A stretch of DNA of 62,335 nt, the filler included. It is 5 parts of 5 records of this genome, joined end to end, with 100 filler letters (N's around TTAATTAATTAA, not from the genome) between each part and the next. Parts side by side here need not be neighbours in the genome. Positions count along the whole stretch, not along the records: positions 1 to 14,782 come from SRR20825006_1430; 4 more parts are not named here. One strand, given 5' to 3'. Position numbers and translations under genes: made by a program. The stretch's first letter is position 1. The number at the start of each line of letters is the position of its first letter. Of this stretch, positions 1 through 28,859 are shown piece by piece. The notes beneath the pieces are model-generated. The model searched no databases, was not told where the DNA came from, and saw only the letters and a program-made list of their open reading frames with translations.

Positions 1-688
<688 letters not shown>

Positions 689-693
689 AGCGA

Positions 694-796
694 CGCCGCA
701 CGCTTCACGCCGCACGCAACACGAAAACCGTCGCGAGCCACGAGCTCGCGGCGGTTTTTTTGTGTCAGGCGTTAGGCATCCGGCGTAATACGTTAC
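694..796. repeat. intergenic element: heptamer-periodic arms (CG every 7 nt) around a terminator hairpin (724-761)
   Basis: CGCCGCA-CGCTTCA-CGCCGCA-CGCAACA-CGAAAAC, then stem AAAACCGTCGCGAGC/GCTCGCGGCGGTTTT plus T-run, then GTGTCAG-GCGTTAG-GCATCCG-GCGTAAT-ACGTTAC. Confidence 0.7.
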
Positions 797-906
797 ATAA
801 CGACAAGGAAAGTGCATTTAGGTTGTACGTCAGTCTCAATTAGTCTGTGGGCAGCGATATATCGACAGCTCTATATACACAACAACAGGCTTATTGAGGA
901 ATCGCC

Positions 907-2322
907 ATGCTGCTGCGCCAACCGGTTTTCGAGATCCCGTTCTTTCCCCGTGCTTTGGGTGCTATCGCCTTGAGTGCCGCCTTGCTGGTGTCAGGGTGTG
1001 GTGGGGGAGGCAGTAGTGATGCGCCCGCCGCCAATAGCCCGGCGCAGGAAGCAGAGCGGGAGGTGGCGGAGCCGGAAGCGCCGGCGGACGCATCCCCTGA
1101 TAACCCGGCTGCCGAACCTGATGGCCCGCGCAAGGTGATTTTCGTGGGCAATAACTGGGAAGGCATGGTCGATGTGATCGACGCCAATACCTACACGCGG
1201 CTGGGGCGCATCAATGGCATACCGGACCAGGCCGAGCGGGAGCGGGCGATTGCCATGAACCCCGTGGATCTGGTGTTTTTCCAGGGCATCCGCGTGTTGA
1301 TTGGCGAAGGTCATCACCAGTACGTGGATGATATGTACAGCTCCAATGACGGCCGCCTGCTGATCGTCTCCCGGCCCAGCTATGCGGATGTGGCCGCCAT
1401 TGATATTGCCACCGGTAACGTGGTCTGGCGTTTTGAGGTGGACGGCTACCGCTCCGATCACATGGCATTGTCTCCGGATGGCACCCAGGTGGCCGTGTCA
1501 GCTTCCACCGGCAATGTGGTCCATATTCTCGATGTGGAAACCGGTGAAGAGCAGGGCAAGTTCCCGTCCGGTGACTCGCCCCACGAAAATATTTATTCCG
1601 AGGACGGCAAGCGCATTTATCACGCCAGTATCGGTACCGTGTACACCCCGCTGGACAGCGAACTGCTCGGCGGCGTCACCGACGCTCTATTGGGCAAGAA
1701 CCTGTTGGACGCGACCAAGGGCGAGCGGGTGTTTCAGGTGGTGGATGCCGACAGTCTGGAGATTCTCAAAACGCTGGATCTGGAAGCGGATCTGGAGGCT
1801 GCCGGTTATGGCAACCTGAGCACCGCGGTGCGGCCCATGGCCCACACGGCAGATGAGCGTTATTTCTACTTCCAGCTGTCTTTTCTGCACGGCTTTATCG
1901 AGTACGACATGGAAGAGCAGAAAGTGCTGCGTCTGGCCGAGTTGCCGGACCTGACCGGTCCACTGGTGACCCGGGAAACCTATGTGAACGATTCCGCCCA
2001 CCACGGTATCGCCCTGAGTGCAGACGACAGTACCTTCTGTGTGGCCGGTACCATGAGTGACTATGTGGCGCTGGTGAACCGTGACGATTTCTCCTACGAA
2101 TTGAAAACCGGCATTGGCGAAAAACCGTATTGGGTGACCACCAGCAAGGACGGTAACCACTGTTATGTGTCCTGGAGCGGCACCGACCAGATGTCCGTCT
2201 TTAACTATGCCAGTGGCAAGGAAGTGGCGCGGGTGGATGTGGGCGACCACCCGCAGCGTATCCGTGAAGGCAGTGTGCCGGAAGCCTGGGTAGAGGATCA
2301 GGGGTCTCTGTTCCTGCCCTGA
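907..2322 (+). CDS. YncE/YVTN-type beta-propeller lipoprotein
   Basis: RBS GAGGA; lipobox LLVSGC followed by Gly/Ser/Pro/Ala linker; blade repeats such as DHMALSPDG, HGIALSADD, VDVGDHPQR. Confidence 0.8.
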   Translation: MLLRQPVFEIPFFPRALGAIALSAALLVSGCGGGGSSDAPAANSPAQEAEREVAEPEAPADASPDNPAAEPDGPRKVIFVGNNWEGMVDVIDANTYTRLGRINGIPDQAERERAIAMNPVDLVFFQGIRVLIGEGHHQYVDDMYSSNDGRLLIVSRPSYADVAAIDIATGNVVWRFEVDGYRSDHMALSPDGTQVAVSASTGNVVHILDVETGEEQGKFPSGDSPHENIYSEDGKRIYHASIGTVYTPLDSELLGGVTDALLGKNLLDATKGERVFQVVDADSLEILKTLDLEADLEAAGYGNLSTAVRPMAHTADERYFYFQLSFLHGFIEYDMEEQKVLRLAELPDLTGPLVTRETYVNDSAHHGIALSADDSTFCVAGTMSDYVALVNRDDFSYELKTGIGEKPYWVTTSKDGNHCYVSWSGTDQMSVFNYASGKEVARVDVGDHPQRIREGSVPEAWVEDQGSLFLP

Positions 2323-2348
2323 GTCGCGATAACCGCAATCGTGCGTTG

Positions 2349-2428
2349 CGAGCAGCGAGTCTCGAACGGCAAAACCTGAAAGCGTGAAATTTCAGGTTTT
2401 CGCGACTCGTACCTCGCCTCTCGCCTTC
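2349..2428. repeat. heptamer-periodic hairpin element (terminator-like core 2371-2400)
   Basis: CGAGCAG-CGAGTCT-CGAACGG, core AAAACCTGAAA...TTTCAGGTTTT, then CGCGACT-CGTACCT-CGCCTCT-CGCCTTC. Confidence 0.7.
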
Positions 2429-2599
2429 TCATGCTCAAGGTGCCGGTTACCCAGGTCAGCCTCAATGTTTTACAGCGTTTTCCTGCTCAAAGCCGACTTT
2501 TTCATTGTCAATCGACCCTTCTCGCACCACACTTCGCCCTGACACGGCAGGCGCTTGCGGCACCTGTGTATTTCCCTGTTGTCAGGAGTTTTTCCAACC

Positions 2600-2983
2600 A
2601 TGCGAATCCTGCATACCATGCTGCGTGTGGGCGATCTTGAGGCGTCAGTTGCTTTCTATACCCAGGTGCTGGGGATGACCGAATTGCGCCGCAAGGACTA
2701 CCCGGAAGGTCGCTTTACCAATGTTTTTGTGGGCTACCAGCCGGAATCGGAAGGCGCGGTGCTGGAGTTGACCTGTAACTGGGACCAGTCATCCTATGAT
2801 CTGGGCGACGGCTATGGCCATGTGGCTCTGGCCGTGGACGACGTGTACGCTGCTTGTGAGCGTATTCGGGAAAGAGGCGGGCGTATCACCCGCGAGCCGG
2901 GCCCCATGAAGCACGGCACCACAGTGCTGGCATTCGCGCAGGATCCGGACGGCTATAAAATCGAATTGCTGGGACGCGATTGA
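2600..2983 (+). CDS. gloA: lactoylglutathione lyase (glyoxalase I)
   Basis: [13 protein letters not shown], LELTx[26 protein letters not shown] upstream of ATG 2600. Confidence 0.95.
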
Positions 2984-3441
2984 TGGCAATAAAGGAGTCG
3001 CAAGTGACAAACAAGGTCACCGTTGGCTGGCGGGAATGGGCGACGTTGCCTGAACTGGGTATCGAGGCCATCAAAATGAAGGTGGATACCGGTGCCCGCA
3101 CGTCCGCGTTGCACGCCTATCAGGTGAAAACGTTTGAGCGCGATGGCGCCGAGTGGGTGCGTTTTTGCATTCACCCGATCCAGGATCAGGATACTGTCCG
3201 TGAATGCGAAGCCCCGGTGTTGGATCGCCGTGTGGTCACCGACTCCGGTGGGCACAAGGAAGAGCGTCCGGTAATTCGCACCGAGATTGTGTTGGGCGGG
3301 CGTCACTGGCCCATTGAGATTACTCTCACGGACCGTGAGAACATGAAATTCCGCATGCTGCTGGGGCGAACCGCCATGGACCTGATTACCGTGGACCCGA
3401 CAGCGTCATTCCTCCTTGGCGGCACAAAAGAGCAACCATGA
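2983..3441 (+). CDS. RimK-associated retropepsin-like protease (RimB-like, 'ATP-dependent zinc protease' family)
   Basis: [26 protein letters not shown] motifs; overlaps gloA stop (TGATG) and rimK start (ATGA). Confidence 0.9.
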
Positions 3442-4346
3442 AAATTGCGATTCTTTCCCGAAACAAGCGCCTGTACTCCACGCGACGCATGGTCGAAGCC
3501 GGCGAAGCGGCGGGCCATGAAATGCATGTGATCGACACCCTGCGCTGTTACATGAGCATGGTGGCTCACAAGCCGGAGATTCACTACAAGGGTGAAGTGC
3601 TGGAAGGTTTTGATGCGGTGATTCCCCGTATTGGTGCCTCGATTACCCAGTACGGTACGGCGGTAGTGCGTCAATTCGAAATGATGGGCGTTTTTCCGAT
3701 CAATGAATCGGTAGCTATCTCTCGCTCCCGGGACAAGTTGCGTTCACTGCAGCTGCTCTCGCGCAAAGGCGTTGGGTTGCCCATCACCGGTTTTGCCCAC
3801 TCGCCGGATGACATTCCTGACCTGATCAACATGGTTCGCGGTGCGCCGCTGGTGATCAAGATGCTGGAAGGCACCCAGGGCATCGGCGTGGTGCTGGCGG
3901 AAACCCGCAAGGCTGCGGAGTCGGTAATCGAAGCCTTTATGGGCCTGAACGTGTCGGTAATGGTGCAGGAATACATCAAGGAAGCCGGCGGTGCGGATAT
4001 CCGTTGTTTTGTGGTGGGCGGCAAGGTTATTGCTGCCATGAAGCGCCAGGCCGCGCCGGGCGAGTTCCGCTCCAACCTGCACCGGGGCGGCAGTGCCAGC
4101 CTGATCCGCATTACCCCGGAAGAACGCGCCACCGCTGTGCGAGCTGCCCGTATCATGGGGTTGAATGTGGCGGGTGTGGATATCCTGCGTTCACACCATG
4201 GTCCGGTGGTGATGGAAGTGAATTCCTCTCCTGGCCTGGAAGGGATTGAGATGGCCACCAACAAGGATGTGGCTGGCATGATCATCAAGTTCATCGAAAA
4301 GGATGCCCGTCCCTACCGGACACAAACCAAAGGTTCCAAGGGATAA
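3438..4346 (+). CDS. rimK: ribosomal protein S6--L-glutamate ligase (ATP-grasp)
   Basis: [56 protein letters not shown]. Confidence 0.96.
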
Positions 4347-4392
4347 GGCTGTTTATTCCAAGAGCACCTCAAAAGGTGCGAACAGCCTGAAG

Positions 4393-4460
4393 CGAGTGAC
4401 GAGTTTCGAGTTGCGAAAGCCGAACAAAATCATGGTTTTCTGTGCTCGGCACTCGTGACC
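4393..4460. repeat. heptamer-periodic element between rimK and the next gene
   Basis: CGAGTGA-CGAGTTT-CGAGTTG-CGAAAGC-CGAACAA ... CTGTGCT-CGGCACT-CGTGACC. Confidence 0.6.
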
Positions 4461-4492
4461 GGGAAGGCTGTCGGCAACGTGGTCAGAAAAGA

Positions 4493-5551
4493 ATGAAAAA
4501 TCCAAAAGAACCGAAAAACGCTCCTTTTGAAATTGATGGCATTACCGTCCAGCCCGGTTCCCGCACAAAAGTGGAGCTGCCGCTGGCTCAGCTTTATACC
4601 CAGACCCCGCTGAATGTGCCTATTCATGTGATCCACGGCCGCAAGCCCGGGCCGGTGTTCATGGTCAGCGCGGCTATCCATGGCGATGAGCTGAATGGCG
4701 TTGAGATTATCCGTCGCCTGCTACGCCATTCCGCCTTGAAAAACCTTAGCGGCACCCTGTTGGCGGTGCCGGTGGTGAATGTGTTCGGCTTTATCCATAA
4801 ATCGCGCTACCTGCCGGACCGCCGGGATCTGAACCGCTGCTTCCCGGGCTCGGAAACCGGCAGCCTGGGCGCGCGCATGGCATGGCAGTTCAAGACCCAG
4901 GTGCTGGACCGTGCCACCCACGCGGTGGACCTGCACACCGGCGCCATTCACCGTGATAATCTGCCGCAGATTCGAGCCAACCTGTCCAACGACGACACCA
5001 GCGCCATGGCCAACGCCTTTGGCGTGCCGGTGGTGATCAACTCGGTACTGGGCGAGGGCACGCTGCGTGAAGTGGCCGAAGCCCAGGGCATTCCGGTCAT
5101 TACCTACGAAGCAGGCGAAGCGCTGCGTTTTGACGAGTCCTGCATTCGTGCTGGCGTCAAAGGCGTGCTCAACGTGATGCATCATCTGGGTATGACGGGT
5201 TCCCGCCGCACCAAGGCACCCGCTGAGCCCTATATCGCCCGCTCCTCCAGCTGGGTCCGAGCCGAACGCGACGGCGTCTTCCTGTCCCTGGTGGCCCTGG
5301 GTGCCTGGATCAAGAAAGGGGATCTGATCGGCCGTATCTCCAGCCCCTTTGGCGGCGATGACATCAATATCCACGCCCCTGCCGCCGGCATTCTGGTGGG
5401 CCGCAACAATCTGCCGTTGGTTAACGAAGGCGAAGCCCTCTACCACATCGCCCGTTTCGAGGAGGTGGGGGAAGTGGCGCAGTCGCTGGAAGAGTTCACC
5501 CACGATATCGAAGAAGGGCCAACCCTGTCGGGGGAGCCGCCAATCGTATAA
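4493..5551 (+). CDS. succinylglutamate desuccinylase/aspartoacylase (M14-like) family protein
   Basis: HGDELNG, DLNRCFPG, DLHTG, YEAGE motifs; commonly linked to rimK; start ATG 4493 chosen. Confidence 0.9.
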   Translation: MKNPKEPKNAPFEIDGITVQPGSRTKVELPLAQLYTQTPLNVPIHVIHGRKPGPVFMVSAAIHGDELNGVEIIRRLLRHSALKNLSGTLLAVPVVNVFGFIHKSRYLPDRRDLNRCFPGSETGSLGARMAWQFKTQVLDRATHAVDLHTGAIHRDNLPQIRANLSNDDTSAMANAFGVPVVINSVLGEGTLREVAEAQGIPVITYEAGEALRFDESCIRAGVKGVLNVMHHLGMTGSRRTKAPAEPYIARSSSWVRAERDGVFLSLVALGAWIKKGDLIGRISSPFGGDDINIHAPAAGILVGRNNLPLVNEGEALYHIARFEEVGEVAQSLEEFTHDIEEGPTLSGEPPIV

Positions 5552-5757
5552 TCCGGCTCGCAACCTGTTGCAGCTCGGGTGGGGCGTCAGGGGGCGAGTT
5601 CCCCCTGGCGGTCTGATTGGGCGGCGGTTGCCGCTGCCTGTCTTATTCTTGTTTGTGTTTTCCTTATTACTTATTGCCGGGCCGACCTGGTGCCAATCCT
5701 TTGTTATACTGCGCCGCGATATGGATACCCCGTTGATTAATCATTAGGAGTGAATAG

Positions 5758-6963
5758 ATGGTCGCCTTGGTCAAGCCGCATGGTGCGGACGCATTGAACC
5801 CCCTGTACGTGGCTGATGAAGCCGCTCGCGTTGCTTTGCAGAAGGAAGCGGAGTCTCTGCCGTCGGTGGTGATCAGTTCCGCGGCTGCTGCCAATGCGGT
5901 GATGATGGGCGCCGGTTATTTCACCCCGCTTTCCGGTTACATGAACAAGGCAGATATGCTGTCAGTGGCCGAGAGCCTGACCACGGCCAATGGCCTGTTC
6001 TGGCCGGTACCGATCGTCAATATGCTGAAAGATATCAGCGCGATTGAAGGTGCCAAGCGCATTGCCCTGCGTGACCCCAATGTGGAAGGTCAGCCGGTGA
6101 TTGCGGTGATGGACGTGGCGGCTATCGAAGAAGCCTCTGACGCGGAACTGGAAGCGGTGGCCGAGCAGGTCTTCGCCACCAACGACAAGCAGCACCCGGG
6201 CGTGGCGAACTTCCTGGCGGCGGGCAACTTTATCGTTTCCGGCGACATCCAGGTGTTGAGCTACTCCTATTTTGCTGACGATTTCCCCGACACCTTCCGC
6301 ACCGCCGTTTCCATCCGCAATGAGTTTGTTGAGCGTGGCTGGAGTAATGTGGTTGCTTTCCAGACCCGTAACCCGATGCACCGTGCCCACGAAGAATTGT
6401 GTCGCATGGCCCAGGAAGCGCTGAACGCCGATGGCATCCTGATCCACATGTTGCTGGGCAAGCTGAAAGCCGGTGATATTCCGGCCGAAGTACGTGATGC
6501 CTCTATTCGCAAGATGGTCGAAGTGTATTTCCCGCCCAATAGCGTGATGATCACCGGGTACGGTTTTGACATGCTGTATGCAGGCCCCCGTGAAGCGGTG
6601 CTGCACGCGGTGTTCCGTCAGAACTGTGGTTGCAGCCACTTGATCGTGGGCCGTGACCACGCTGGTGTGGGTGATTATTACGGTGCTTTCGACGCACAGA
6701 CCATCTTCCAGGAAAAAGTGCCGGCAGGCGCCCTGGAGATCAAGATCTTCGAAGCCGACCATACAGCCTACTCCAAGAAGCTCGATCGCGTGGTGATGAT
6801 GCGTGATGTGCCGGATCACACCAAGGACGACTTTGTTCTGCTGTCAGGGACCAAGGTCCGTGAGATGCTGGGCCAGGGGATTGCCCCGCCGCCGGAATTC
6901 TCTCGTCCTGAAGTGGCGCAGATCCTGATGGATTACTACCAGGCGCTGGACGCCGACAAGTAA
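5758..6963 (+). CDS. sat: sulfate adenylyltransferase (homo-oligomeric Sat type)
   Basis: AFQTRNPMHRAHEEL, MLYAGPREAVLHA, GRDHAGVG, LSGTKVREML, PPPEFSRPEVA. Confidence 0.95.
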   Translation: MVALVKPHGADALNPLYVADEAARVALQKEAESLPSVVISSAAAANAVMMGAGYFTPLSGYMNKADMLSVAESLTTANGLFWPVPIVNMLKDISAIEGAKRIALRDPNVEGQPVIAVMDVAAIEEASDAELEAVAEQVFATNDKQHPGVANFLAAGNFIVSGDIQVLSYSYFADDFPDTFRTAVSIRNEFVERGWSNVVAFQTRNPMHRAHEELCRMAQEALNADGILIHMLLGKLKAGDIPAEVRDASIRKMVEVYFPPNSVMITGYGFDMLYAGPREAVLHAVFRQNCGCSHLIVGRDHAGVGDYYGAFDAQTIFQEKVPAGALEIKIFEADHTAYSKKLDRVVMMRDVPDHTKDDFVLLSGTKVREMLGQGIAPPPEFSRPEVAQILMDYYQALDADK

Positions 6964-7010
6964 TCAGATCTGGCCTGAGCACGTTCGCTCAGCAGCATCA
7001 GAAAGAAAAC

Positions 7011-7039
7011 AAAAAAGCCTCTTTTAAGAGGCTTTTTTT
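7011..7039. terminator. bidirectional intrinsic terminator
   Basis: AAAAAAGCCTCTT-TT-AAGAGGCTTTTTTT between convergent genes. Confidence 0.85.
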
Positions 7040-7081
7040 GTTTTATCGCGGGTTGCTGAAATAACGGTTTGCCGGCGGACG

Positions 7082-7411
7082 TTACTGCTGGGGAGCCTGT
7101 TGCCCGGTGCATTGAAAAGTCGCGTTCACCGTCCAGCCGATACAGTCACCGTCCTGGGTTTCATTGCTGCAGCTCTGGCTGGGTTTGCCGTTGGGAATCG
7201 CGCCGCTGTATCCCCAGCCCTGACATTGCGCGCTGGCTTTTTGCAGGCCTTGTTGCCAGTCCATCTGTGGGTTCTGCATCAGGTTATAGTCGGTGGCCAG
7301 AGTCACGGTGCCTTCATTCTGGTTCCCGTCGGCAACCCGGATCGGGGAGGCGGCGGTCACGCAGGCGACCAAGGACGCGGTGGCAAGCACGGTCAGAAAT
7401 CGAATGAACAT
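7082..7411 (-). CDS. YecR-like lipoprotein
   Basis: Lipobox SLVAC; GTVTL...A..QCQGWGY..A and C-terminal Cys pattern of YecR; start ATG 7411 chosen. Confidence 0.75.
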   Translation of the reverse strand: MFIRFLTVLATASLVACVTAASPIRVADGNQNEGTVTLATDYNLMQNPQMDWQQGLQKASAQCQGWGYSGAIPNGKPSQSCSNETQDGDCIGWTVNATFQCTGQQAPQQ

Positions 7412-7501
7412 GATTGGCTCCAATCGGTGAGTAAGTATTATCCACAAAGCCTAGGGGCTGTTTTGAAGGGCTCAAGTGGCAATCTGTAAAGAAAGCAAAA
7501 A

Positions 7502-8794
7502 TTACGGTGGTGGCATCGCCGGGGCCGAATCGCTTTCTATCCAGAGGCGACGGTTCCGGTCCGGCTGTTCCCAGTGGAGATTTTTCACTTCATGCATGGG
7601 CGTCATGGGGCTATGGAAGAACATCACCAGCCGCAGGCCATCGGTAATAAAGGGATCGCCGGTGAGGTTATGGCCGGGGCTGTCGATGTGTTTGGCTTCC
7701 ATGGCACGCACATACCCGAACTCGGCCAGCCGTTGTGAAAAAATCATGTCCTGGAGCAGATAGTCCCGGGCCTCATCCACATCCGGGTCGATTTTGTGGG
7801 TGGTCAAGGTGGGCGACTTGAAGGTAAAGCGTACACCGATATCCCGACTGATCTGTCCCAGCCAGACCGGTTCGCCGTCGCATAGTAGTGGCGCCCGCCA
7901 GAGGCGCAGGTGATTGCGCTGGTGAATATTGCCACGGGCTTTTTGCAACGCCATATCCTGGGGGCGATCCAGCGCATAAAGGGAGCTCACCGGTGAGTAA
8001 CGGTAGCTGGAACCCATCAGGAAGGATTTGGTGGTTTTCCAGATCGAGCCACCATGGATGCGCTCGGTCAGGTCCCAGCCGCGTTGCACCATGGCACTGA
8101 GCAGCAACTGGCTGTCGCCGACCAGGACGAAATTGATCGGGTCGCCACTGGCACTGCTGTCGTCGTTGTGGGTGCAGCAGGGCTGCTCTGCTAGCCAGGC
8201 GCGCAGGCCATCGCGATCCACGTGTTGGTGGTCCTGTTCGTTATACAGGATGGTGAGGTCGACTTTTTCCACATCCAGTTTGATGCCCGGCACGTCGATG
8301 ATGAATGACGATTGCCAGCTTTTTCCGCCTCCCAGCAGGTCCACATTGACCACCTTGACGCCAAGATCGCGATTGGTGAATACAAAGCCGCTGGTGCGCT
8401 TACCGGTTGGCAGGTTGATGGGCATGGCACGGGAAACGAACATGCGGTCCACGGCTTTTTCATCTTCCTTGCCGAACTTTCCCTTCACTTTCCAGGCCAC
8501 TTCCAGTGGCGAAAAATATTGTTGGTCGGTGGTGACAGGGAGGTAATACAGTGGCGTGCCGGTGTTGTTGTCCACCTCCAGCCAGACGGCCTGAATGCCG
8601 TGTATGCCCAGGGCCACGCCAAAGATGTCGTGGGCATCGCTGTCACTGATGACGCTGGCGCGTACGGTCAGCGCTTGTTCCACGTGTTGCGTGGCGCCTT
8701 CGCGCAGAGCGTTGTCATCGACGATGCCGGGTTGAAAACTGCATGCGGCAGTGAAAGCGAAAAGACTGAATAGCAAAGCGAGCCGTTGCTTCAT
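7502..8794 (-). CDS. LssY C-terminal domain lipoprotein
   Basis: Lipobox FTAAC; GDPINFVLVG, SPVSSLY, QDMALQKAR..IHQRNHLRLW, THKIDPDVDEAR, TDG. Confidence 0.8.
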   Translation of the reverse strand: MKQRLALLFSLFAFTAACSFQPGIVDDNALREGATQHVEQALTVRASVISDSDAHDIFGVALGIHGIQAVWLEVDNNTGTPLYYLPVTTDQQYFSPLEVAWKVKGKFGKEDEKAVDRMFVSRAMPINLPTGKRTSGFVFTNRDLGVKVVNVDLLGGGKSWQSSFIIDVPGIKLDVEKVDLTILYNEQDHQHVDRDGLRAWLAEQPCCTHNDDSSASGDPINFVLVGDSQLLLSAMVQRGWDLTERIHGGSIWKTTKSFLMGSSYRYSPVSSLYALDRPQDMALQKARGNIHQRNHLRLWRAPLLCDGEPVWLGQISRDIGVRFTFKSPTLTTHKIDPDVDEARDYLLQDMIFSQRLAEFGYVRAMEAKHIDSPGHNLTGDPFITDGLRLVMFFHSPMTPMHEVKNLHWEQPDRNRRLWIESDSAPAMPPP

Positions 8795-8953
8795 TCCCGA
8801 ACATCCCCCTAACCCGTGAAGCTTGATGTTAACACTGCCATTGGCGGGATGTTGATGATTGAAAATGAATCAGTACGCGGCGCGGCTGGGGGCGTTGGGG
8901 ATATGCAATGGGGTGAGAGGGGGCGTGAGAACGTTGAGGAAGGTTGAAAGTGG

Positions 8954-8985
8954 TTGAAGGAGGCCGGCGATGCCGGCCCCTTCAA
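8954..8985 (-). terminator. hairpin downstream of Lys-rich small ORF
   Basis: TTGAAGGAGGCCGGC-GAT-GCCGGCCCCTTCAA; no clear U-tract. Confidence 0.5.
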
Positions 8986-8992
8986 TGGAAGA

Positions 8993-9100
8993 TTAAAGCT
9001 TCTTGAGCTTTTTCTTCAGTTTCTTCACAACATTTTCTTGTTTGCTGATCTTGGCTTTACTGTTCTTGATGGCTTTTTTCAGTTTTTTCTTCTGAGACAT
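8993..9100 (-). CDS. 35-aa lysine-rich peptide (not in ORF track)
   Basis: MSQKKKLKKAIKNSKAKISKQENVVKKLKKKLKKL*; RBS GGAG 6 nt before ATG; followed by hairpin. Confidence 0.7.
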   Translation of the reverse strand: MSQKKKLKKAIKNSKAKISKQENVVKKLKKKLKKL

Positions 9101-9146
9101 GGTGTGCTCCGTCGTTTATATCGAATACAGGTTTTATCGGTTTCAG

Positions 9147-9320
9147 TCAGTCGCCGGAAGGCGCTTCCTGATTCTTGATAAAGTCGCGAATAAACCGGCG
9201 CACTTCCCTTGCTGCGCTGGTATCGAGTTCCTCACAGAGCTCGATAAAGCGCACACGCTCTTCGTCGTTGATTCGGACGATAAGCTGGCTGTTTTTCTTT
9301 TTGGCTTTGCTTTTTGCCAT
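9147..9320 (-). CDS. 57-aa ribbon-helix-helix-like DNA-binding protein (not in ORF track)
   Basis: MAKSKAKKKNSQLIVRINDEERVRFIELCEELDTSAAREVRRFIRDFIKNQEAPSGD*; beta-strand LIVRI followed by two amphipathic helices. Confidence 0.75.
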   Translation of the reverse strand: MAKSKAKKKNSQLIVRINDEERVRFIELCEELDTSAAREVRRFIRDFIKNQEAPSGD

Positions 9321-9379
9321 TGGTCATCACCATGAAAAATCACGCCGCATCGTCGCCGGTTCACGCTCGACTTTCAATG

Positions 9380-9420
9380 AGGCTATAGGCTATCTTTTAG
9401 ATAGTCAATGTATATACATT
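9380..9420 (-). promoter_or_regulatory. putative sigma70 promoter with palindromic operators
   Basis: Minus strand TTGACT-N17-TAGCCT; perfect palindrome AATGTATATACATT (9407-9420) overlaps the -35; CTATCT-TTT-AGATAG (9390-9404) lies in the spacer. Confidence 0.55.
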
Positions 9421-9425
9421 TTGAC

Positions 9426-11132
9426 TTAACCCTTGTACGGATAGTCCAGGCTGCCTTTCATGGCGGCCTTGTCGTCGTCGCTGAAGTCCGGGAAGGGCAG
9501 AGCGTCATCCTGGTTGCGTTGCACCGTGGCTGTGCTGCTTTCGGTGTTGTTGACCCATTGCTGAACCGGTACCGCCAGGTGGACGCCGTTATCCTCCAGG
9601 ATTTGCAGGATGCGCAGGTTCAGATCTTCAGCCACGGCCAGGAATTCGCTGTAGGCGCTGCTGTCCACATAACAGTTCAGCGAGATGCGGTAGCCGTCCC
9701 GCAGGATTTCCTCGAAGCGTACCCGGGCTGCACGTTCGGTGAGCCTTGGGTGGCTGTAAATCAAGCGCCGCAGGTCGACCAGTAATTGGCGTAGCTGGTC
9801 GGTGCTGGCGCCCAGGCGAATATGCAGGTCGCGGTGGTAGCGACGGAAATCGGACTCGCTGATGTTTTCGATGCTGGCACTGGCGAGTACCGCGTTGGGA
9901 ACGTACACCACGGTGCGGTCCGTCTGGCGAATGCGGGTAGAGCGCAGGCCGATTTCCTCGATGACGCCGGCGGTGGTGCCAACCCGGCAGAAGTCGCCGG
10001 GTTGAACGGGTTTGGCAATGTACAGGGTGAAGGCGCCAATCACGTTTTCCAGGGTCTTCTGTGCGGCCAGGGCCACGGCGATGGAGCCAATGCCCAGCCC
10101 GGCCAGTACCGTGGTGATGTCGTAGCCGGAGTCGCTGAGCCACAGCAGAAAGATCACCACAGCGGCGATCATTTTGAGGATGGTACGAACCGGGCGAATG
10201 ATGCCGGACCAGTACTTCTGGTTCTGGGCACTGCTAAGGAACAGGGCAGAAAGCAGTTCGATAAAGCCCAGCGCCAGGAACAGGGTGGCCAGATAGCCCA
10301 GGGCGGACTGGTTCAGGTACACCTGGGCGCGGATGGACAGGCCCAGCTCGGCCACGCCCAGCTGCATCAGCTTGAAGAACAGGTACCAGCGAAACGGCAT
10401 GGAGAAGAACTGGTGCAGGGTATCGCGGTAACGATCGGAGTACTCCAGCAGGCGCAGTGTCAGCCGGCGCAGCAGGGAAGAGGCCAGCCAGGCGCCGATG
10501 ATGATCAGTACCAGCCCGGCCACCTGCCAGTTCTGCATATAGAGGATCGTGAAATCCGGCAGATAATCCGCCAGGCGGGTGATGGTCGGGTTGTAACCGA
10601 ACAGCTCCCAGAGGTGGGGGATCTGCTGCACTGTGGCGTTGGAGATTTTCCAGATACGACGCTCGTCATCGCCGGGTACCCGTTGCAGATAGAGGGTCAG
10701 GGTGTCGTCCGGCAGGGTCAGGGTGGCGATCTTGTCCCGGTAGCTGGGCAGGCCGTCATCCCGGTGCCCCTCCGGGCGGGTAGACAACCGGGTCAGGTCC
10801 AGGATCCGCTGCTGGCCCCAGACAATATTCAGCTGCTCCATTAAGGTGGCGGCATCACTGCCGGCCATGTCTGCGGGCAGGTAACGCATGTCCAGGTAAG
10901 CCCCGGCGGCGTCCCAGTTTCCGTCCTGGGCTGCGTTCATGATGGCCAGCATAGTCGATAGGGGGGTATCGCCGGGTCGAATGCTGTCATCTTGCAGGGA
11001 GTCAGCAATCACCGCCTCGGCCTTTTCTCCCGTATCGATGACATCCTTGATGGTCAGCGAGCTATCGTCGGCGTGGCTCCACTGTGCCAAGAGCAGCAGG
11101 CAGGCGATCAGGGGCAGAATTCGGTGCGTCAC
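9426..11132 (-). CDS. MscS-family mechanosensitive channel with N-terminal periplasmic domain
   Basis: Signal peptide; LAGLGIGSIAVALAAQKTLEN, GVIEEIGLRSTRIR, VPNAVL. Confidence 0.92.
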   Translation of the reverse strand: MTHRILPLIACLLLLAQWSHADDSSLTIKDVIDTGEKAEAVIADSLQDDSIRPGDTPLSTMLAIMNAAQDGNWDAAGAYLDMRYLPADMAGSDAATLMEQLNIVWGQQRILDLTRLSTRPEGHRDDGLPSYRDKIATLTLPDDTLTLYLQRVPGDDERRIWKISNATVQQIPHLWELFGYNPTITRLADYLPDFTILYMQNWQVAGLVLIIIGAWLASSLLRRLTLRLLEYSDRYRDTLHQFFSMPFRWYLFFKLMQLGVAELGLSIRAQVYLNQSALGYLATLFLALGFIELLSALFLSSAQNQKYWSGIIRPVRTILKMIAAVVIFLLWLSDSGYDITTVLAGLGIGSIAVALAAQKTLENVIGAFTLYIAKPVQPGDFCRVGTTAGVIEEIGLRSTRIRQTDRTVVYVPNAVLASASIENISESDFRRYHRDLHIRLGASTDQLRQLLVDLRRLIYSHPRLTERAARVRFEEILRDGYRISLNCYVDSSAYSEFLAVAEDLNLRILQILEDNGVHLAVPVQQWVNNTESSTATVQRNQDDALPFPDFSDDDKAAMKGSLDYPYKG

Positions 11133-11391
11133 AGGCTGGATTCCTCAAAGGTGGCGGCTGTTGTGCAAAGGCAAGGCTAGAATGTACCGCTAACCGTGAT
11201 GTCGGCCAATGATGGCGGCCCTGGCTGGGTCGGAGAGAACAGACCGACGGGCCTGTCAGGCAGAGCAATGGCGGCAATTGGCAGGTATTATCCCGGTTTT
11301 ACGGGGGGATTTGCTTTAAAATCCCGTCCGTCGATTTTTCGGGCAGCGCGGCTTGCCTCGAACCTGGACTCAATGAACCAAAGGAAAACAG

Positions 11392-12297
11392 ATGACCGTG
11401 ATTCTGGCCTGTCTGCTGATTTATGCGGGCTGCATTATTTTTATTCGGATGCGTAACCGGGAACCGTTTGGCCTGAAGCGCCAGCTGTCGGACTTTTCCA
11501 CCTTTATGGTGCCGTTCAATATTCCGGCCTATCTGCTCTCCAAGGTGCCCACCACGCCGCGCCTGAGCTTGTCGCATCTGCCGGAATTACAGTTGATCGA
11601 AGACAACTGGGAAACCATTCGCGATGAAGCGGTGGCGTTGTACCACGGTGGCCTGATTACCGCGAAAGAAGATCTGCCGGCCAGCAGCTTTTACAAGGAT
11701 AATCGCTGGACCAGTTTTTATCTGAAAGTGTACGACAACAAGCTGCCCTCGGCCTACGACCTGGCGCCGAAAACCATGGCGTTGCTGGAGCAGATTCCCA
11801 CCCTGAATATCGCCCTGTTCGCGGTATTGATGCCGGGCAAGAAGCTGAATCGTCACCACGATCCGTTTGCCTACACCCTGCGCTACTCCATCGGGCTGAG
11901 CACCCCCAATGATGAAAACTGCGGGCTGACGGTAAACGAAGAGGATTACATCTGGCGTGATGGCGACAGCATTATCTTCGATGAAACCTATATTCATTCT
12001 GCGTGGAATCGCACAGACACCCCCCGCATCATCCTGATGACCGACGTGGATCGTCCCTTGAAGAGCAAATGGGTGCAAAAGGGTTACTGGTTCTTCGGCT
12101 GGTTTTTCAATCGCCTGTTCATGATCGACAACGTGGACAGCAGCCACACCGGTATTGGTAACAAGCTGGGCAAGGGCGTGATTGCCTACAAAGGCTTCCT
12201 GAAATCGGTGAAGAAGAAGAACAAGCCGTTCTACGTAACCGCCAAGTGGGCAGTGGTTTTGGTGGTACTGGGCAGTATCAGTTACCAATTGCTGTGA
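11392..12297 (+). CDS. aspartyl/asparaginyl beta-hydroxylase family dioxygenase (LpxO/OlsC-like)
   Basis: N- and C-terminal TM segments; HHDP...LRY, FDETYIH, PRIIL..DVDRP. Confidence 0.85.
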   Translation: MTVILACLLIYAGCIIFIRMRNREPFGLKRQLSDFSTFMVPFNIPAYLLSKVPTTPRLSLSHLPELQLIEDNWETIRDEAVALYHGGLITAKEDLPASSFYKDNRWTSFYLKVYDNKLPSAYDLAPKTMALLEQIPTLNIALFAVLMPGKKLNRHHDPFAYTLRYSIGLSTPNDENCGLTVNEEDYIWRDGDSIIFDETYIHSAWNRTDTPRIILMTDVDRPLKSKWVQKGYWFFGWFFNRLFMIDNVDSSHTGIGNKLGKGVIAYKGFLKSVKKKNKPFYVTAKWAVVLVVLGSISYQLL

Positions 12298-12454
12298 ATG
12301 TTATTCATTTTCCGCAGAGCGATAAACGGTAGCAGCGCGGCGAAGATCCGCCGTGCTGTGGTTGGCAGCCGTTGAATTGGCGTGACAGTATGGGTGTGGG
12401 GAGATAATCAAAAAAACACCAGACAAAATAAGAACAGAAACAGGAATAATAACA

Positions 12455-12988
12455 ATGATAAGGACTATCATTGCCCGCAGGAGCACGGCGCTCTTGCCCA
12501 TCGTGTTGTTGTCGCTTTCCTTCACCGCTTATGCCGACGTGGCTGTGACACCCGCTGGCCCCTTCTCCGCCAGCGGTGAATTAGCCATGAAAAAAGGTCG
12601 GATACCCGTGTCCTGTAATACCACCTTCGATGGCCGCGTGGGCGGTGACGGTGCGCTCCGGGTTACCGCTGTGACCTTCGGTGGGCTGAATCCCTTGTGT
12701 AAAAGCATCAAGGCGCTGGGCTTGCCCTGGCAAGGGCAGGTGGATAGCCCTCGCAAGCTCACTGTGCATGACATGCAGGTAAAAGTCCGGGTGCCTGTGC
12801 TTGGGGGTGTTTGCGGCCCGGGCCCGGTGTCATTGGTATGGCGTAATGCCGACGCGTCAGCCAGTTTCGAGCAGGTTAATCTGGGGCCGGATTGCGCCAT
12901 GAATGGCACCATGCTGACTACACCGCAGGTGGATATCCGTCATCCGTCGCAAACCGGCACGGTTACACAAAGTGCGAGTTCGCCCTGA
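12455..12988 (+). CDS. secreted PraA/PraB-like protein (activator of alkane oxidation family)
   Basis: Signal peptide ending AYA; TPAGPFSASG...VSC...G...LC....LPW...CGP...C pattern as in Pseudomonas PraA/PraB; start uncertain. Confidence 0.7.
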   Translation: MIRTIIARRSTALLPIVLLSLSFTAYADVAVTPAGPFSASGELAMKKGRIPVSCNTTFDGRVGGDGALRVTAVTFGGLNPLCKSIKALGLPWQGQVDSPRKLTVHDMQVKVRVPVLGGVCGPGPVSLVWRNADASASFEQVNLGPDCAMNGTMLTTPQVDIRHPSQTGTVTQSASSP

Positions 12989-13116
12989 AGACGTATCAGC
13001 TTTGTTATTCCGGCCTGATCGGCGTTTCCCCTGTGCCCATCGCCCCGTTATTATGGCCAGCTTGATCGGCTGCCTGATGGGCGGCCTGGGCACACAGAAC
13101 AGGCAAGGACATAACA

Positions 13117-13791
13117 ATGCAAAATGTGGTGGCGATTCCCGCAAACCCGGCGCTGGTGAACAGCACGGAAGATTTCATCCACGCTGTTGAAAACGACCGT
13201 AAGGACAGCGCGGAGAAGTTTATCCAGATGGCGGATCATCTGACCGACCGTGTTCTCAGCCTGTTCCTGGTGGAACCGGCCAACATGACCGAGCTGTCCG
13301 GTGGCCAGAAAAAAGTCATCGATTTTGCCGTTTCTACGGCGGGTAAAGCGTCCAGCATGCTGACTCGTCAGATCTTCAAGAAAATCACCAGCAAGGAATT
13401 TGCACCGGTATTGGCGAACGTGAAAGCCATGTACTGGCAGGCGGGTGACGACAACGGCAACCAGGCCCATATTTCATTCCCGGTGGATGACGGCTTTGCC
13501 GAGACCTTCCGCAAGGCCACCGAGCTGTGTGCGGCCGGCAAAGGCACCGAGGATGTGGCACTGGTCACCCGCGCCATGGGCGATGTGGCAGACAAGATTA
13601 TCGATGAAGTCTTTGTCGCCAACACCAAGGAAGTGAAGGTAGGTTTTGTGACCCAGAAGGCCCTGAATGTGGGGGTGGATGGCAGCCGCAAAGCGGTACA
13701 TGCGGTGAACAACAAGGTGCTGAAAGACCTGAGTGACGCCGAGCTGCAAGGTTATATGGCCCACTACCAGGGGTTGCTACGCCAGCGTTAA
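13117..13791 (+). CDS. hypothetical all-alpha protein with internal duplication
   Basis: RBS AAGGA; host-like codon usage; two similar ~110-aa halves. Confidence 0.8.
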   Translation: MQNVVAIPANPALVNSTEDFIHAVENDRKDSAEKFIQMADHLTDRVLSLFLVEPANMTELSGGQKKVIDFAVSTAGKASSMLTRQIFKKITSKEFAPVLANVKAMYWQAGDDNGNQAHISFPVDDGFAETFRKATELCAAGKGTEDVALVTRAMGDVADKIIDEVFVANTKEVKVGFVTQKALNVGVDGSRKAVHAVNNKVLKDLSDAELQGYMAHYQGLLRQR

Positions 13792-13807
13792 GGGTTGGCG
13801 TCAGCAT

Positions 13808-13840
13808 AAAAAAAACGGGGCCAGTTGGCCCCGTTTTTTT
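13808..13840. terminator. bidirectional intrinsic terminator
   Basis: AAAAAAAACGGGGCCA-GT-TGGCCCCGTTTTTTT. Confidence 0.9.
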
Positions 13841-13865
13841 ATGCGTGCGGGTGCTGTTTTCAGAG

Positions 13866-14782
13866 TCAGGCTTTATTGCCATTCGCCTGACGGCTGTTGC
13901 GTTGCGGCCGGCGACGACGCTGCCCGTTCCCGGCAGGTTTTGCGCCATTGCCACTATTACCCCCATTACCGTTCGGGTTGCCCTTGCTGCCCTGCTGGGC
14001 GCGCTGGCCGCTACCGGAAGATTGCCCGTTCCGGTTTCTGCCTGCGGAAGCGGGTTTCGGCTTCTTGGGACGTTTGCTCTTGGGAGGCAAGGGTGCGCGC
14101 GCGGCGGGAAGGGGTTCACCGGGCTCGAAACCGGCCACGATTTTGCGCTCCAGCTGTTGCTGGGTCAGTCGCTCAATGTCCTTGAGCTGCTGGAATTCGT
14201 CGGCACTGACCAGGGAAATGGCCTGCCCGGTGGCGCCGGCCCGGCCGGTGCGGCCGATACGGTGCACGTAATCCTCGGGTACGTTGGGCAGGTCCACATT
14301 CACGACTTGGGGCAGCTGCTCGATATCCAGACCGCGGGCGGCGATGTCGGTGGCCACCAGGGCGCGGACCTTGCCGCTCTTGAAATCGGCCAGGGCGCGG
14401 GTGCGTGCATTCTGGCTTTTGTTGCCGTGGATGGCGGCGGCTTCAATGCCGCTGGCCTCCAGTTGTTTGGCCAGTTTGTTGGCGCCGTGTTTGGTGCGGC
14501 TGAATACCAGTACTTGGAACCAGCTGTGTTCCTGAATCAGGTGGGTCAGCAGGGCGGGTTTGCGCTTCTTGTCCACCGGTGCGATCCACTGGGTGACCAG
14601 TTCGGTGGTGGTGTTGCGCGGGCTGATATCCACTTCCACGGGGTCGTTGACCAGCCCCTTGGCCAGTGCACGAATTTCCGGCGAAAAGGTCGCAGAGAAC
14701 ATCAGGTTCTGCCGCTTGGGCGGCAGTTTCGAGAGGATCTTGCGGATGTCGTGGATAAAGCCCATGTCCAGCATGCGGTCGG
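13866..14782 (-). CDS. rhlE: DEAD-box RNA helicase RhlE-like, 5'-truncated at gap
   Basis: [47 protein letters not shown], basic low-complexity tail. Confidence 0.88.
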
Positions 14783-27468: not shown

Positions 27469-28683
27469 TTATTGCGCTGCGCTTTGTGCCTCGCCGGTGT
27501 TCTCGGCGGGGGACTGGGGCTGTTCTTGCTGGGCGGCGGCGTCGTCAGCTTTTTCGGTGTCCACGGGGGTCACCGGGGAGCCGGGCTGAATGCGCTGCAG
27601 GCCGTCGACAATCAGACGATCGCCGTCTTTCAGGCCGTCAGCGATCAACCATTGGCTTTTCACGGCACGCTCGGTGCTGACTTTCACCTTCTTGGCCTGG
27701 TCATTGCTGTCGATCAGCATGGCATAGGCCTGGCCTGTCGGATCGCGGGTGATGCCTTTCTGGGGAACCAGAATGGCGTCCTCGCGTTGGCCCTCTGGCA
27801 GGCGACCGCGAACAAACATGCCGGGCAGCAGCTCACTTTCCGGGTTCGGGAACAGGGCGCGCAGGGTTACCGAGCCGGTGCTTTCGTCCACGGCGAACTC
27901 CGAGAACTGCAGCACACCGGGTTGCGGATAGGCGCTACCGTCTTCCAGAAGCAGGGTGATGCGGGCGGCATCGTCGCTGACTTGCTGGAGCTCACCGGCC
28001 TGCATGGCCTGGCGCAGCTGACGCAGCTCATTGCTGGACTGGGTCAGGTCCACGTAGATCGGATCCAGCTGACGAATGGTGGCCAGGGTATTGGCCTGGT
28101 TGGCGGTGACCAGGGCGCCGGCGGTGACGCTGGAGCGGCCGATACGGCCACTGATCGGCGCTTCGATGGTGGCGTAGTCCAGATTGATCTGGGCGCTTTG
28201 CAGGTTGGCGCGGGCGGCGGCGACGGCGGCCTTGTTTTCATCCAGCTGGGCCTGGGCTTCATCGTATTCCTGCTGGCTCACGGCTTTGTAATCGAGCAGT
28301 TTCTTGAAGCGCTTGGCGCGCAAGTCGTTGGACTTCAGTGTTGCCTGGGAGCGAGCCAGTTCGGCCCTGGCGGTGGCCACGGCCGCTTGATAGGTGCGCG
28401 AGTCAATCTTGTACAGCGGTTGCCCGGCTTCCACTTCCTGCCCTTCCTCGAACAGGCGCTTCTCTATCACGCCGCTGACCTGTGGCCGCACTTCGGCGAT
28501 CTGGTGAGCGGTGGTGCGCCCGGGCAATTCCCGATTCAGGGTAATGGTCTCGGCTTTTACCGTGACAAAACCGGCTTGTGGCGCTTGCTGTTGTTGTTGG
28601 CCTGGCTGGCCGGCATCGCCGCAGCCACTAAGCTGCAGGGCGAGTGCACCTGCTATCAGGGGGAGAATGAAACCGCTGCGCAT
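27469..28683 (-). CDS. acrA: RND efflux periplasmic adaptor (AcrA/MexA family)
   Basis: Lipobox LSGC; AEVRPQVSG, APISGRIG, VDESTGSVTLRA.FPNP, LLPGMFV; start ATG 28683. Confidence 0.95.
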   Translation of the reverse strand: MRSGFILPLIAGALALQLSGCGDAGQPGQQQQQAPQAGFVTVKAETITLNRELPGRTTAHQIAEVRPQVSGVIEKRLFEEGQEVEAGQPLYKIDSRTYQAAVATARAELARSQATLKSNDLRAKRFKKLLDYKAVSQQEYDEAQAQLDENKAAVAAARANLQSAQINLDYATIEAPISGRIGRSSVTAGALVTANQANTLATIRQLDPIYVDLTQSSNELRQLRQAMQAGELQQVSDDAARITLLLEDGSAYPQPGVLQFSEFAVDESTGSVTLRALFPNPESELLPGMFVRGRLPEGQREDAILVPQKGITRDPTGQAYAMLIDSNDQAKKVKVSTERAVKSQWLIADGLKDGDRLIVDGLQRIQPGSPVTPVDTEKADDAAAQQEQPQSPAENTGEAQSAAQ

Positions 28684-28780
28684 AATCACCTCAGTGCTTG
28701 GAAACACGCTATAGCACGCCACTAACCGGCCTTGTGCAGGCGGTCCGGTGGTGCTTGCATGAAAAATGAATCAGGTTCAG

Positions 28781-28804
28781 TATATACATTCGACAATGTA
28801 TGTA
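28781..28804. promoter_or_regulatory. AcrR-type operator
   Basis: TATATACATT-CGAC-AATGTATGTA, close to the E. coli AcrR operator, in the divergent acrA/tetR gap. Confidence 0.8.
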
Positions 28805-28859
28805 TAGGCCTGTGGGCCAACTTGCACAAAAAATTCTTGATTCCATTTGGGAGCCTCCT

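Follow-up and report, generated by a model that had tools for sequence, protein, structure and literature searches.

A conserved two-gene module in proteobacteria: a predicted ribbon-helix-helix repressor and a lysine-rich microprotein behind a probable palindromic operator

What do two very small reading frames on one strand encode, and do they belong together? The question is raised by positions 8,993 to 9,420 of a 62,335-nt stretch of DNA (hereafter the window; parts of five genome records joined end to end, of which positions 1 to 14,782 come from SRR20825006_1430). Here a 57-codon open reading frame (ORF) for a ribbon-helix-helix (RHH) protein precedes a 35-codon ORF for a lysine-rich peptide, downstream of a perfect palindrome. 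Comparative analyses indicated that the pair is very probably a real gene unit whose RHH protein probably controls its own promoter. The best overall explanation, which we prefer while holding it tentatively, is a compact, self-repressed, horizontally mobile bicistronic operon that doses a polycationic microprotein.

Both ORFs were called from the letters of the window, each on the minus strand and with an ATG start, and together with the palindrome, the ribosome-binding site and the closing hairpin they lie where a preliminary description of this stretch had placed them (Table 1). A DNA search of 41 genomes of the order revealed the module of approximately 430 bp in 19 of 24 Alcanivorax/Alloalcanivorax genomes, at 71-99% identity; the 17 other genera of the order that were searched gave no match. 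Within the genus, the RHH protein was 77-100% identical in 20 loci, while the peptide was 83-100% identical and 35 aa long in 19 of these. The ratio of nonsynonymous to synonymous differences (pN/pS; Nei-Gojobori method, 18 unique sequences for each gene) was 0.069 for the RHH core and 0.189 for the peptide, values from which we conclude that purifying selection acts on both genes. As one antisense frame shares third codon positions with the lysine frame, pN/pS alone is unable to choose the strand, and gene signals were therefore compared between the sense and antisense orientations. The sense peptide genes began with ATG in 72 of 74 loci, carried a Shine-Dalgarno (SD) core in 69 of 74 (a 4-mer at -16..-4 of the peptide start) and were held to lengths of 32-41 aa, whereas the antisense control had ATG in 12 of 74 and an SD in 3 of 74, with its frames split among 31, 35, and 2 loci. 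Owing to composition, antisense ORFs of at least 20 aa were frequent (68 of 74 loci). Public protein collections (NCBI, JGI, and others) contain the 35-aa sequence unchanged, on 547 contigs, and RHH relatives are named “hypothetical protein” in databases. The conservation that the preliminary description had proposed to look for was found, with the 35-aa ORF and the RHH gene both conserved and the palindrome co-occurring with the RHH gene, and the module is, on this comparative evidence, very probably a real, translated two-gene unit.

Two genomes stand out. In L005 (genome G010, contig C33), an in-frame deletion of 75 nt between two KKKLKK-coding repeats, aligned to window positions 9018-9092, leaves a peptide of 10 aa, with the RHH protein 100% identical and the operator intact; the deletion may be a natural knock-out, or the assembly may have collapsed at the repeat. 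The metagenome-assembled genome G012 holds two different copies of the whole module (L013 on contig C108 and L017 on C169), which may be paralogues or a strain mix in the bin.

Assembled RNA libraries were also consulted. The stretch is contained in 19 public runs, nine of which are recorded as RNA, and four RNA runs from four studies were compared over positions 8600-9900 (1301 nt). A single contig bridged the 46-nt spacer between the two genes in three of the four runs (X2, 8954-9341; X6, 8929-9369; X10, 9022-9365). In X2, this 388-nt piece was the sole contig on the 1301-nt stretch and ended 1 base past the hairpin at one side and 32 nt inside the predicted start at approximately 9373 at the other; the contig ends at 9369, 9365, and 9341 give a weak hint on the transcript start. 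The bridging contigs are consistent with an operon transcript, given that contigs cannot by themselves prove one transcript or transcription.

The core of the palindrome, GTATATAC, occurs twice in the window against 0.13 expected, a count reached in none of 100 shuffles. Of 90 RHH loci from Gamma- and Alphaproteobacteria, 79 had an exact copy no further than 230 nt upstream of the gene, and 84 had one when a single mismatch was allowed; only six hits fell in the other 250,615 nt of the same loci. An 18-nt block, GTATATACATTGACTATC, which holds the -35 hexamer, was invariant in all 21 aligned Alcanivorax sequences. The consensus of 70 non-redundant promoters reads TGTATATACA, followed by TTG, by aTaT at +13..+16 and by GATA at +23..+26 from the palindrome, and these sub-sites lie approximately 10.5-11 bp (about one helical turn) apart, over the -35 box and the spacer. 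Counts of TGTATATACA in five whole Alcanivorax genomes were 1, 1, 0, 2, and 1, and G008 has CGTATATACA at the operator site; since TGTATATACA is near-unique in whole genomes, the repressor seems to have essentially one target. Upstream of 15 peptide loci from genomes without the RHH gene, GTATATAC was not found in any. The palindrome thus goes with the RHH gene and is absent from RHH-less peptide loci, which points to autorepression, and we regard repression of the module by its own RHH protein through the palindrome as probable. By analogy with Arc and CopG, RHH dimers would bind such sites cooperatively and block the polymerase. The self-regulated two-gene module that had been proposed for this stretch gains good comparative support from conservation, selection, shared RNA contigs and a palindrome that tracks the RHH gene in two proteobacterial classes.

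In the split case of genome G129, the motif GTATATAC-tat-GTATATC lies approximately 240 nt before the peptide gene, and the RHH gene, 1 Mb away, is without the palindrome; an ORF upstream of this peptide gene was considered as a diverged RHH and rejected, as it had no similarity in profile comparison. The second GTATATAC of the window, at 28780, is situated between divergent genes for an HlyD-type membrane-fusion protein (27469-28722, minus strand) and a TetR/AcrR-type regulator (28800-29510, plus strand), inside the palindrome ATACATT-CGAC-AATGTAT. The 11-mer GTATATACATT is common to this site and the RHH operator, and has a second place in four of five Alcanivorax genomes. This site was judged part of a TetR-type operator, and the region 28770-28810 is probably the TetR protein's own operator, a second target of the RHH protein being less likely.

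The RHH protein belongs to a widespread and strongly conserved RHH_9-like family. All 282 candidates of the protein search were related at E<=0.01, and a scan of a genome collection gave at least 565 confirmed places among the 600 stretches listed; the best 80 of the confirmed stretches come from many gammaproteobacterial genera, including Alteromonas, Paraglaciecola, Photobacterium, Salinivibrio, Marinobacter, Marinobacterium, Neptuniibacter, and Oceanospirillum, and from several Alphaproteobacteria. Alignment of 24 sequences from many genera revealed 21 invariant columns, including Q12, R16, N18, and DTSAARE-RRFIR. The Pfam model RHH_9 (PF19839) was matched by 23 of the 24 members at E<=0.1 (best E 7.6e-07), one relative carries a precomputed PF19839 hit, and a neighbour cluster in the ESM Atlas is 98% RHH_9, taken as a lead only, its clusters being named “hypothetical protein”. 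The AlphaFold2 (AF2) model, with a mean predicted local distance difference test score (pLDDT) of 74.5, has an extended N-terminus followed by two helices (Table 1), in the predicted strand-helix-turn-helix topology of the RHH superfamily, and the alternating residues Q-L-I-V-R-I-N precede helix 1. Helix 2 ends at residue 52 of 57, leaving a tail of approximately five residues that is short and variable in the family, and the protein is therefore predicted to be without a toxin-binding extension. With the monomer model, Foldseek returned 0 matches against the PDB and a wide VIA-align search gave a best Z of 3.3, which is noise; the best PDB match by sequence was DinJ at E 1.1, with no solved relative. 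No match was obtained for the module proteins in PADLOC or for the RHH protein in phage records, and in PHROGs it matched only phrog_19878 (function not assigned; E 1.2e-05). The GTATATAC operator and the nearly invariant DTSAAREVRRFIR helix define a separate RHH subfamily.

Some family members occur in other surroundings. At L086:1680-2310 (Tropicimonas marinistellae), the peptide is replaced and the RHH gene stands directly before a gene for a 209-aa ParA-like ATPase, whose N-terminus carries a GGCGKTT Walker motif; the arrangement resembles small RHH partition proteins. Five small genomes of family f284 (G468, G514, G689, G718, and G796) have no peptide and two RHH matches each, which lie 6-10 kb apart on one contig in G514, G718, and G796, as if flanking an island, and on different contigs in G468 and G689.

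A peptide profile built from 30 sequences matched downstream of the RHH gene, on the same strand, in 68 of 80 loci. The window peptide has a net charge of approximately +15 and is predicted by AF2 to form one helix over residues 3-34 (pLDDT 93.9). All 30 sequences have I, I, L, and L at the heptad d positions; the a positions carry L, R, Q/H, L, and A, almost all e and g residues are lysine, and K-[QH]-E in the middle of the helix is nearly invariant. The hydrophobic moment of the window peptide was 0.40, compared to a shuffled mean of 0.17 and a 99th percentile of 0.39, while those of two other family peptides were 0.22 and 0.35, under the 99th percentile of their own shuffles; the peptide is hydrophilic (mean hydrophobicity -0.5). 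Lysine at the e and g positions of a coiled coil disfavours self-pairing, and the helix is therefore more likely to sit on a polyanion or to pair with an acidic helix. That it binds nucleic acid or another polyanion is a possible, still rather doubtful, reading of these features.

Searches with the peptide gave no family match in Pfam, NCBIfam, PADLOC, or PHROGs, the best NCBIfam result being E 0.043 to L34 for one of 30 members. Among solved chains, it matched only coiled-coil fragments at E>=1, and in the ESM Atlas only “hypothetical protein” clusters, below 0.9. MetOD2, matched by 16 of 30 members (best E 3.3e-4) over its last 30 positions only, was rejected as the peptide family and read as composition. 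Among 1.84 billion representative proteins there were 94 matches at E<=0.001, and the 18 inspected were mostly the same peptide behind a mis-called upstream start or with extra residues after it. A metagenomic protein of 114 aa, P0185, is an in-frame fusion of RHH, a linker of approximately 25 residues and peptide, which could be genuine or could reflect the loss of a stop codon in a single assembly. Two of the 15 stand-alone versions of the peptide, L129 (G746) and L131 (G813), bear low-complexity tails rich in Lys, Ser, Pro, and Glu, like histone-H1-type tails, of 57 aa in L129 and longer in L131. The peptide founds an unnamed family of 32-41 aa; the cargo is new as a family, while the repressor is an ordinary kind of protein.

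The linkage of the two genes was determined across 401 evenly sampled genomes of the order, with thresholds of E<=1e-5 for the peptide and of E<=1e-5 or E<=3e-20 for the RHH protein. The peptide was detected in 33 genomes and the RHH protein in 37, or in 32 at the stricter threshold. Both genes were present in 20 genomes, adjacent on one strand in 18 and unlinked in G471 (where the RHH frame holds two stops) and G518. A further 12 genomes had the RHH gene only and 13 the peptide only, the latter judged at an RHH E of 1e-5, so that more strongly diverged RHH genes may remain among them. In the even sample of the class, a strong RHH match occurred in nine genomes and a strong peptide match in six; four had both (three adjacent and one, G129, unlinked) and two the peptide only. 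Stand-alone peptide genes retain the SD and the terminator, in unrelated contexts. At L124, L132, and L133 (G559, G471, and G518), where the peptide gene is not beside an RHH gene, a different perfect palindrome, GTGACGTCATTACGTCAC, lies approximately 60-90 nt upstream, which suggests that in this group the same cargo is controlled by another dedicated regulator.

When mapped on the RHH tree, the presence of the peptide requires approximately 10 changes compared to a shuffled mean of 16.7, and none of 500 shuffles was as low. The tree cuts across taxonomy, with Acinetobacter plasmids grouped with Marinobacter and alphaproteobacterial rows inside gammaproteobacterial groups. The RHH gene was found on 15 plasmid records (nine Acinetobacter, five Salinivibrio, and one Vibrio), and the two Acinetobacter plasmids inspected have, after the RHH gene, a gene for a peptide of 37-38 aa that is missing from the gene table, together with a tandem palindrome and a terminator. 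Sequence beyond the module is not homologous between Alcanivorax species, and the unit therefore sits at different places. No flanking gene was conserved across genera, the top neighbour clusters being antisense artefacts. In some Alcanivorax species (L009, L011, L012, and L014), the module is directly downstream of a gene for an LssY_C-domain protein, and in the window it lies between the LssY_C gene and an MscS gene; this differing position relative to the LssY_C gene implies that the module moved within the neighbourhood. Horizontal mobility is the best reading of these patterns. The first residue of RHH helix 1 also varied with linkage, being D in 41 of 70 peptide-linked proteins and K or R in 14 of 18 unlinked ones, in a comparison where relatives are not independent.

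The preferred explanation can be put as a sequence of steps. A sigma-70-type promoter (TTGACT, 17 nt, TAGCCT) would transcribe both genes. RHH dimers would bind the GTATATAC palindrome and weaker sub-sites spaced by about one helical turn across the -35 box and the spacer, and binding would shut off their own promoter. The second gene would supply a 35-aa amphipathic helix with a hydrophobic stripe at a and d and lysine at nearly all other residues. This peptide would act independently, not as an obligate partner of the RHH protein, and would bind a polyanion, the first choice being nucleic acid (nucleoid, ribosome, or RNA), while the repressor would keep its dose low and buffered. We infer all three of the central elements, i.e., RHH binding to the palindrome, repression by that binding and the peptide target.

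Several observations count against this explanation. The exact palindrome is missing from 11 of the 90 RHH loci, and the window RHH protein scored 16.4 bits (E 0.0083) against the RHH_9 cut-off of 23.4. The consensus promoter scan of the window did not list the module promoter, because its -10 hexamer matches the consensus at only three of six positions; of the -35/-10 pair that the preliminary description had put under the palindrome, the -35 hexamer overlaps the palindrome by 2 nt, and the -10 hexamer is the weaker half. Contigs X3 (9186-9460) and X6 (9340-9526) run across the promoter, which could reflect read-through from the upstream channel gene or library DNA. The single natural fusion P0185 and the acidic bias at helix 1 of peptide-linked RHH proteins hint at a closer partnership of the two products. 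The peptide is linked to nucleic acid only by its charge, by the geometry of its helix and by Lys-rich tails in two relatives, and is without family match, solved relative or conserved neighbour in the searches above.

A wider and more doubtful view, which we would still call possible, is that the peptides form a new family of polycationic “K-coil” microproteins whose docking site is the ribosome, the nucleoid or a helical partner of acidic character. Their potency would be such that cells place them under dedicated repressors (the GTATATAC-binding RHH protein here, the regulator of a different palindrome in other lineages), and the module would be spreading among marine Gamma- and Alphaproteobacteria and Acinetobacter plasmids. 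The option of a regulator of a nucleoid- or ribosome-binding microprotein, one of two offered in the preliminary description, remains the best fit of those two, with the peptide target read from composition only.

Other explanations give the peptide a different role. It could be a working partner of the RHH protein, as co-repressor, anti-repressor or bridge between dimers on the operator, its Lys-rich helix docking on the acidic RHH helix 1 and/or the DNA backbone and so providing feedback that senses the peptide level. The fusion P0185, the adjacency of the genes in 18 of the 20 genomes with both, the expectation that lysine at e and g should favour an acidic partner over self-pairing, and the aspartate at the start of helix 1 in linked proteins speak for such a role. 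However, the fusion is single, the residue correlation is confounded by relatedness, and each gene can be found alone: 13 of the 33 peptide-bearing genomes lack any family RHH, and 12 of the 32 genomes with an RHH gene lack the peptide. Moreover, solo RHH genes mostly retain the same palindrome, so that the RHH protein needs no peptide to have an operator, and some RHH-less lineages have the different palindrome GTGACGTCATTACGTCAC before the peptide gene. We consider the partnership unlikely. The other option of the preliminary description, a type II toxin-antitoxin (TA)-like pair in which the peptide is a growth-inhibiting toxin and the RHH protein its antitoxin and autorepressor, agrees with the antitoxin-first layout of two small genes separated by 46 nt, with the palindromic operator over the promoter, with the patchy, horizontally transferred distribution and plasmid copies, and with G010, which keeps an intact RHH beside the 10-aa remnant. 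In addition, a survey of marine TA systems lists RHH_9 among the hypothetical partners of ParE toxins (PMC12654330). Yet 13 of the 33 peptide-carrying genomes in the order sample, and two of six in the class sample, have the putative toxin gene with an SD and terminator of its own but no RHH gene, and in three further genomes (G129, G471, and G518) the two genes are unlinked. The RHH protein ends approximately five residues past helix 2, without a toxin-wrapping extension, no toxin or defence match was obtained in Pfam, NCBIfam, or PADLOC, and the peptide is hydrophilic, unlike membrane-peptide toxins. The separability of the genes, the absent toxin-binding tail and the absent toxin-like match disfavour a TA pair, which we judge improbable.

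It is very improbable that the peptide is a membrane-active or secreted cationic helix of the antimicrobial type, made at low level against competitors or the cell's own envelope. The cationic amphipathic helix, with its moment just above the shuffled 99th percentile, would suit such a function, one plasmid copy lies beside a gene for a C39 peptidase, and in the searchable portion of the literature the 10-residue C-terminal string was found only in a paper on designed antimicrobial peptides. Nevertheless, the hydrophobic face is a narrow a/d stripe, the moments of the two other members are lower, no signal or leader sequence is present, no export or immunity gene is conserved nearby, and the C39 neighbour is a single case. 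Scarcely credible is the idea that the 35-codon frame is untranslated, being a 3' untranslated region or small RNA of the RHH transcript, or that the real gene is the Phe/Leu-rich ORF of the opposite strand. A non-coding role could draw on the only Rfam match, a sub-threshold one to sroD over 8955-9032 (24.9 bits against a gathering score of 50), and an antisense gene on the frequency of opposite-strand ORFs and on substitution ratios that alone cannot separate the strands. The sense starts, SD cores and held lengths described above argue against both, as do the scattered frames and scarce start signals of the antisense ORFs. The amino acids are conserved from Alpha- to Gammaproteobacteria with different codons, and stand-alone copies keep only the ORF, the SD, and the terminator. 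The explanation preferred here is still the self-repressed operon with an independently acting peptide.

The features of the module are collected in Table 1. It is flanked by two minus-strand genes, for an MscS-type channel (9426-11132) and an LssY_C-domain protein (7502-8794), and its G+C content is 0.41-0.50 against 0.55-0.65 in the surroundings. The inverted repeat of the promoter spacer, absent from the preliminary description, was found here; its CTATC and GATAG arms are conserved and its centre is variable within Alcanivorax, where the aligned loci also keep the TAnnnT form of the -10 hexamer at the same spacing. The stem of the closing hairpin is maintained with differing sequences across Alcanivorax, and a hairpin with a U-run was seen 3' of the peptide genes in most relatives; the terminator scan missed the hairpin of the window because no T-run follows it. 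No conserved structure was found in the leader (RNAalifold -1.25).

Table 1. Positions of the module features in the window (nt), with strand and remarks.
Feature	Position	Strand	Remarks
Operator site 1, perfect 14-nt palindrome AATGTATATACATT	9407..9420	.	From sequence; core GTATATAC at 9410-9417; abuts/overlaps the -35 box
-35 hexamer TTGACT	9403..9408	-	From sequence; 5/6 consensus positions; shares 2 nt with the palindrome
Operator sites 2 and 3, inverted repeat CTATC-N5-GATAG	9390..9404	.	Predicted sites within the 17-nt promoter spacer
-10 hexamer TAGCCT	9380..9385	-	From sequence; weak, 3/6 consensus positions; 17 nt past the -35
Predicted 5' untranslated leader	9321..9373	-	Start at ~9373 placed from the -10 position
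RHH repressor gene, 57 aa	9147..9320	-	Predicted Lys-rich N-terminal arm, strand ~12-18, helices 19-32 and 35-52
Shine-Dalgarno GGAG of the peptide gene	9107..9110	-	6 nt ahead of the peptide ATG; inside the 46-nt intergenic spacer 9101-9146
Polycationic peptide gene, 35 aa (16 Lys, 1 Glu)	8993..9100	-	Predicted single amphipathic helix with heptad hydrophobic stripe
Closing G+C-rich hairpin, terminator-like	8955..8983	-	-25 kcal/mol for a 61-nt stretch; without U-run in this species

The full-text literature searched, which covered few subscription journals, yielded no account of the peptide, its family or the operator. Proteins below 50 aa are routinely missed by annotation, and Lys-rich ones also by tryptic proteomics. 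For a protein of this size the comparative support is unusually strong, combining many genera, an apparently single-target dedicated repressor, a sharp 8-bp operator and coverage in RNA libraries. The module offers a clean, ready-made setting in which to study the action of an extreme polycationic helix in the bacterial cell, and the RHH protein with its operator could find use as a compact, orthogonal part for repression. Should the peptide act on ribosomes or the nucleoid, these machineries of marine bacteria would have gained a mobile accessory layer.

The Arc/Mnt/CopG/MetJ superfamily comprises small RHH autorepressors whose dimers bind operators cooperatively, and CopG of plasmid pMV158 represses its own copG-repB operon. 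The layout of CopG is the closest to that of the module, which shares with it an RHH-first two-gene operon, a strand-helix-helix protein of approximately 50 aa with a basic N-terminal arm, a short palindrome over the -35 box and spacer, and sub-sites about one helical turn apart. In contrast to CopG and Arc, the second gene of the module encodes a 35-aa polycationic peptide, not a replication or phage gene. Among models, RHH_9 (PF19839) comes nearest, with the window protein below its cut-off. Type II TA systems with RHH antitoxins (ParD-ParE, RelB-RelE, DinJ-YafQ, and CcdA-CcdB) have in common with the module the gene order, the size class, the palindromic operator, the patchy mobile spread and the plasmid copies, but differ in that the peptide is often without the RHH gene, the RHH protein is without a toxin-binding tail and no toxin family is matched. 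Very small, highly basic proteins associated with the ribosome or the nucleoid are known in bacteria (bS22, bTHX, Sra, the histone-H1-like Hc1, and AlgP); compared here through family libraries only, they share with the peptide the size of approximately 30-45 aa and the extreme positive charge, and H1-like proteins also share the Lys/Ser/Pro-rich tails of its two relatives L129 and L131. They differ in that no sequence relationship was detected, and in that the peptide has a strict heptad stripe and the K-[QH]-E centre, and its genes are not near ribosomal genes and are patchy, not universal. Finally, the designed K-coils of E/K coiled coils and the Leu/Lys model antimicrobial peptides resemble it in the hydrophobic a/d stripe, the lysines at e and g and the single helix, whereas the peptide of this module is the product of a natural, conserved gene with polar central a positions (R, Q/H).

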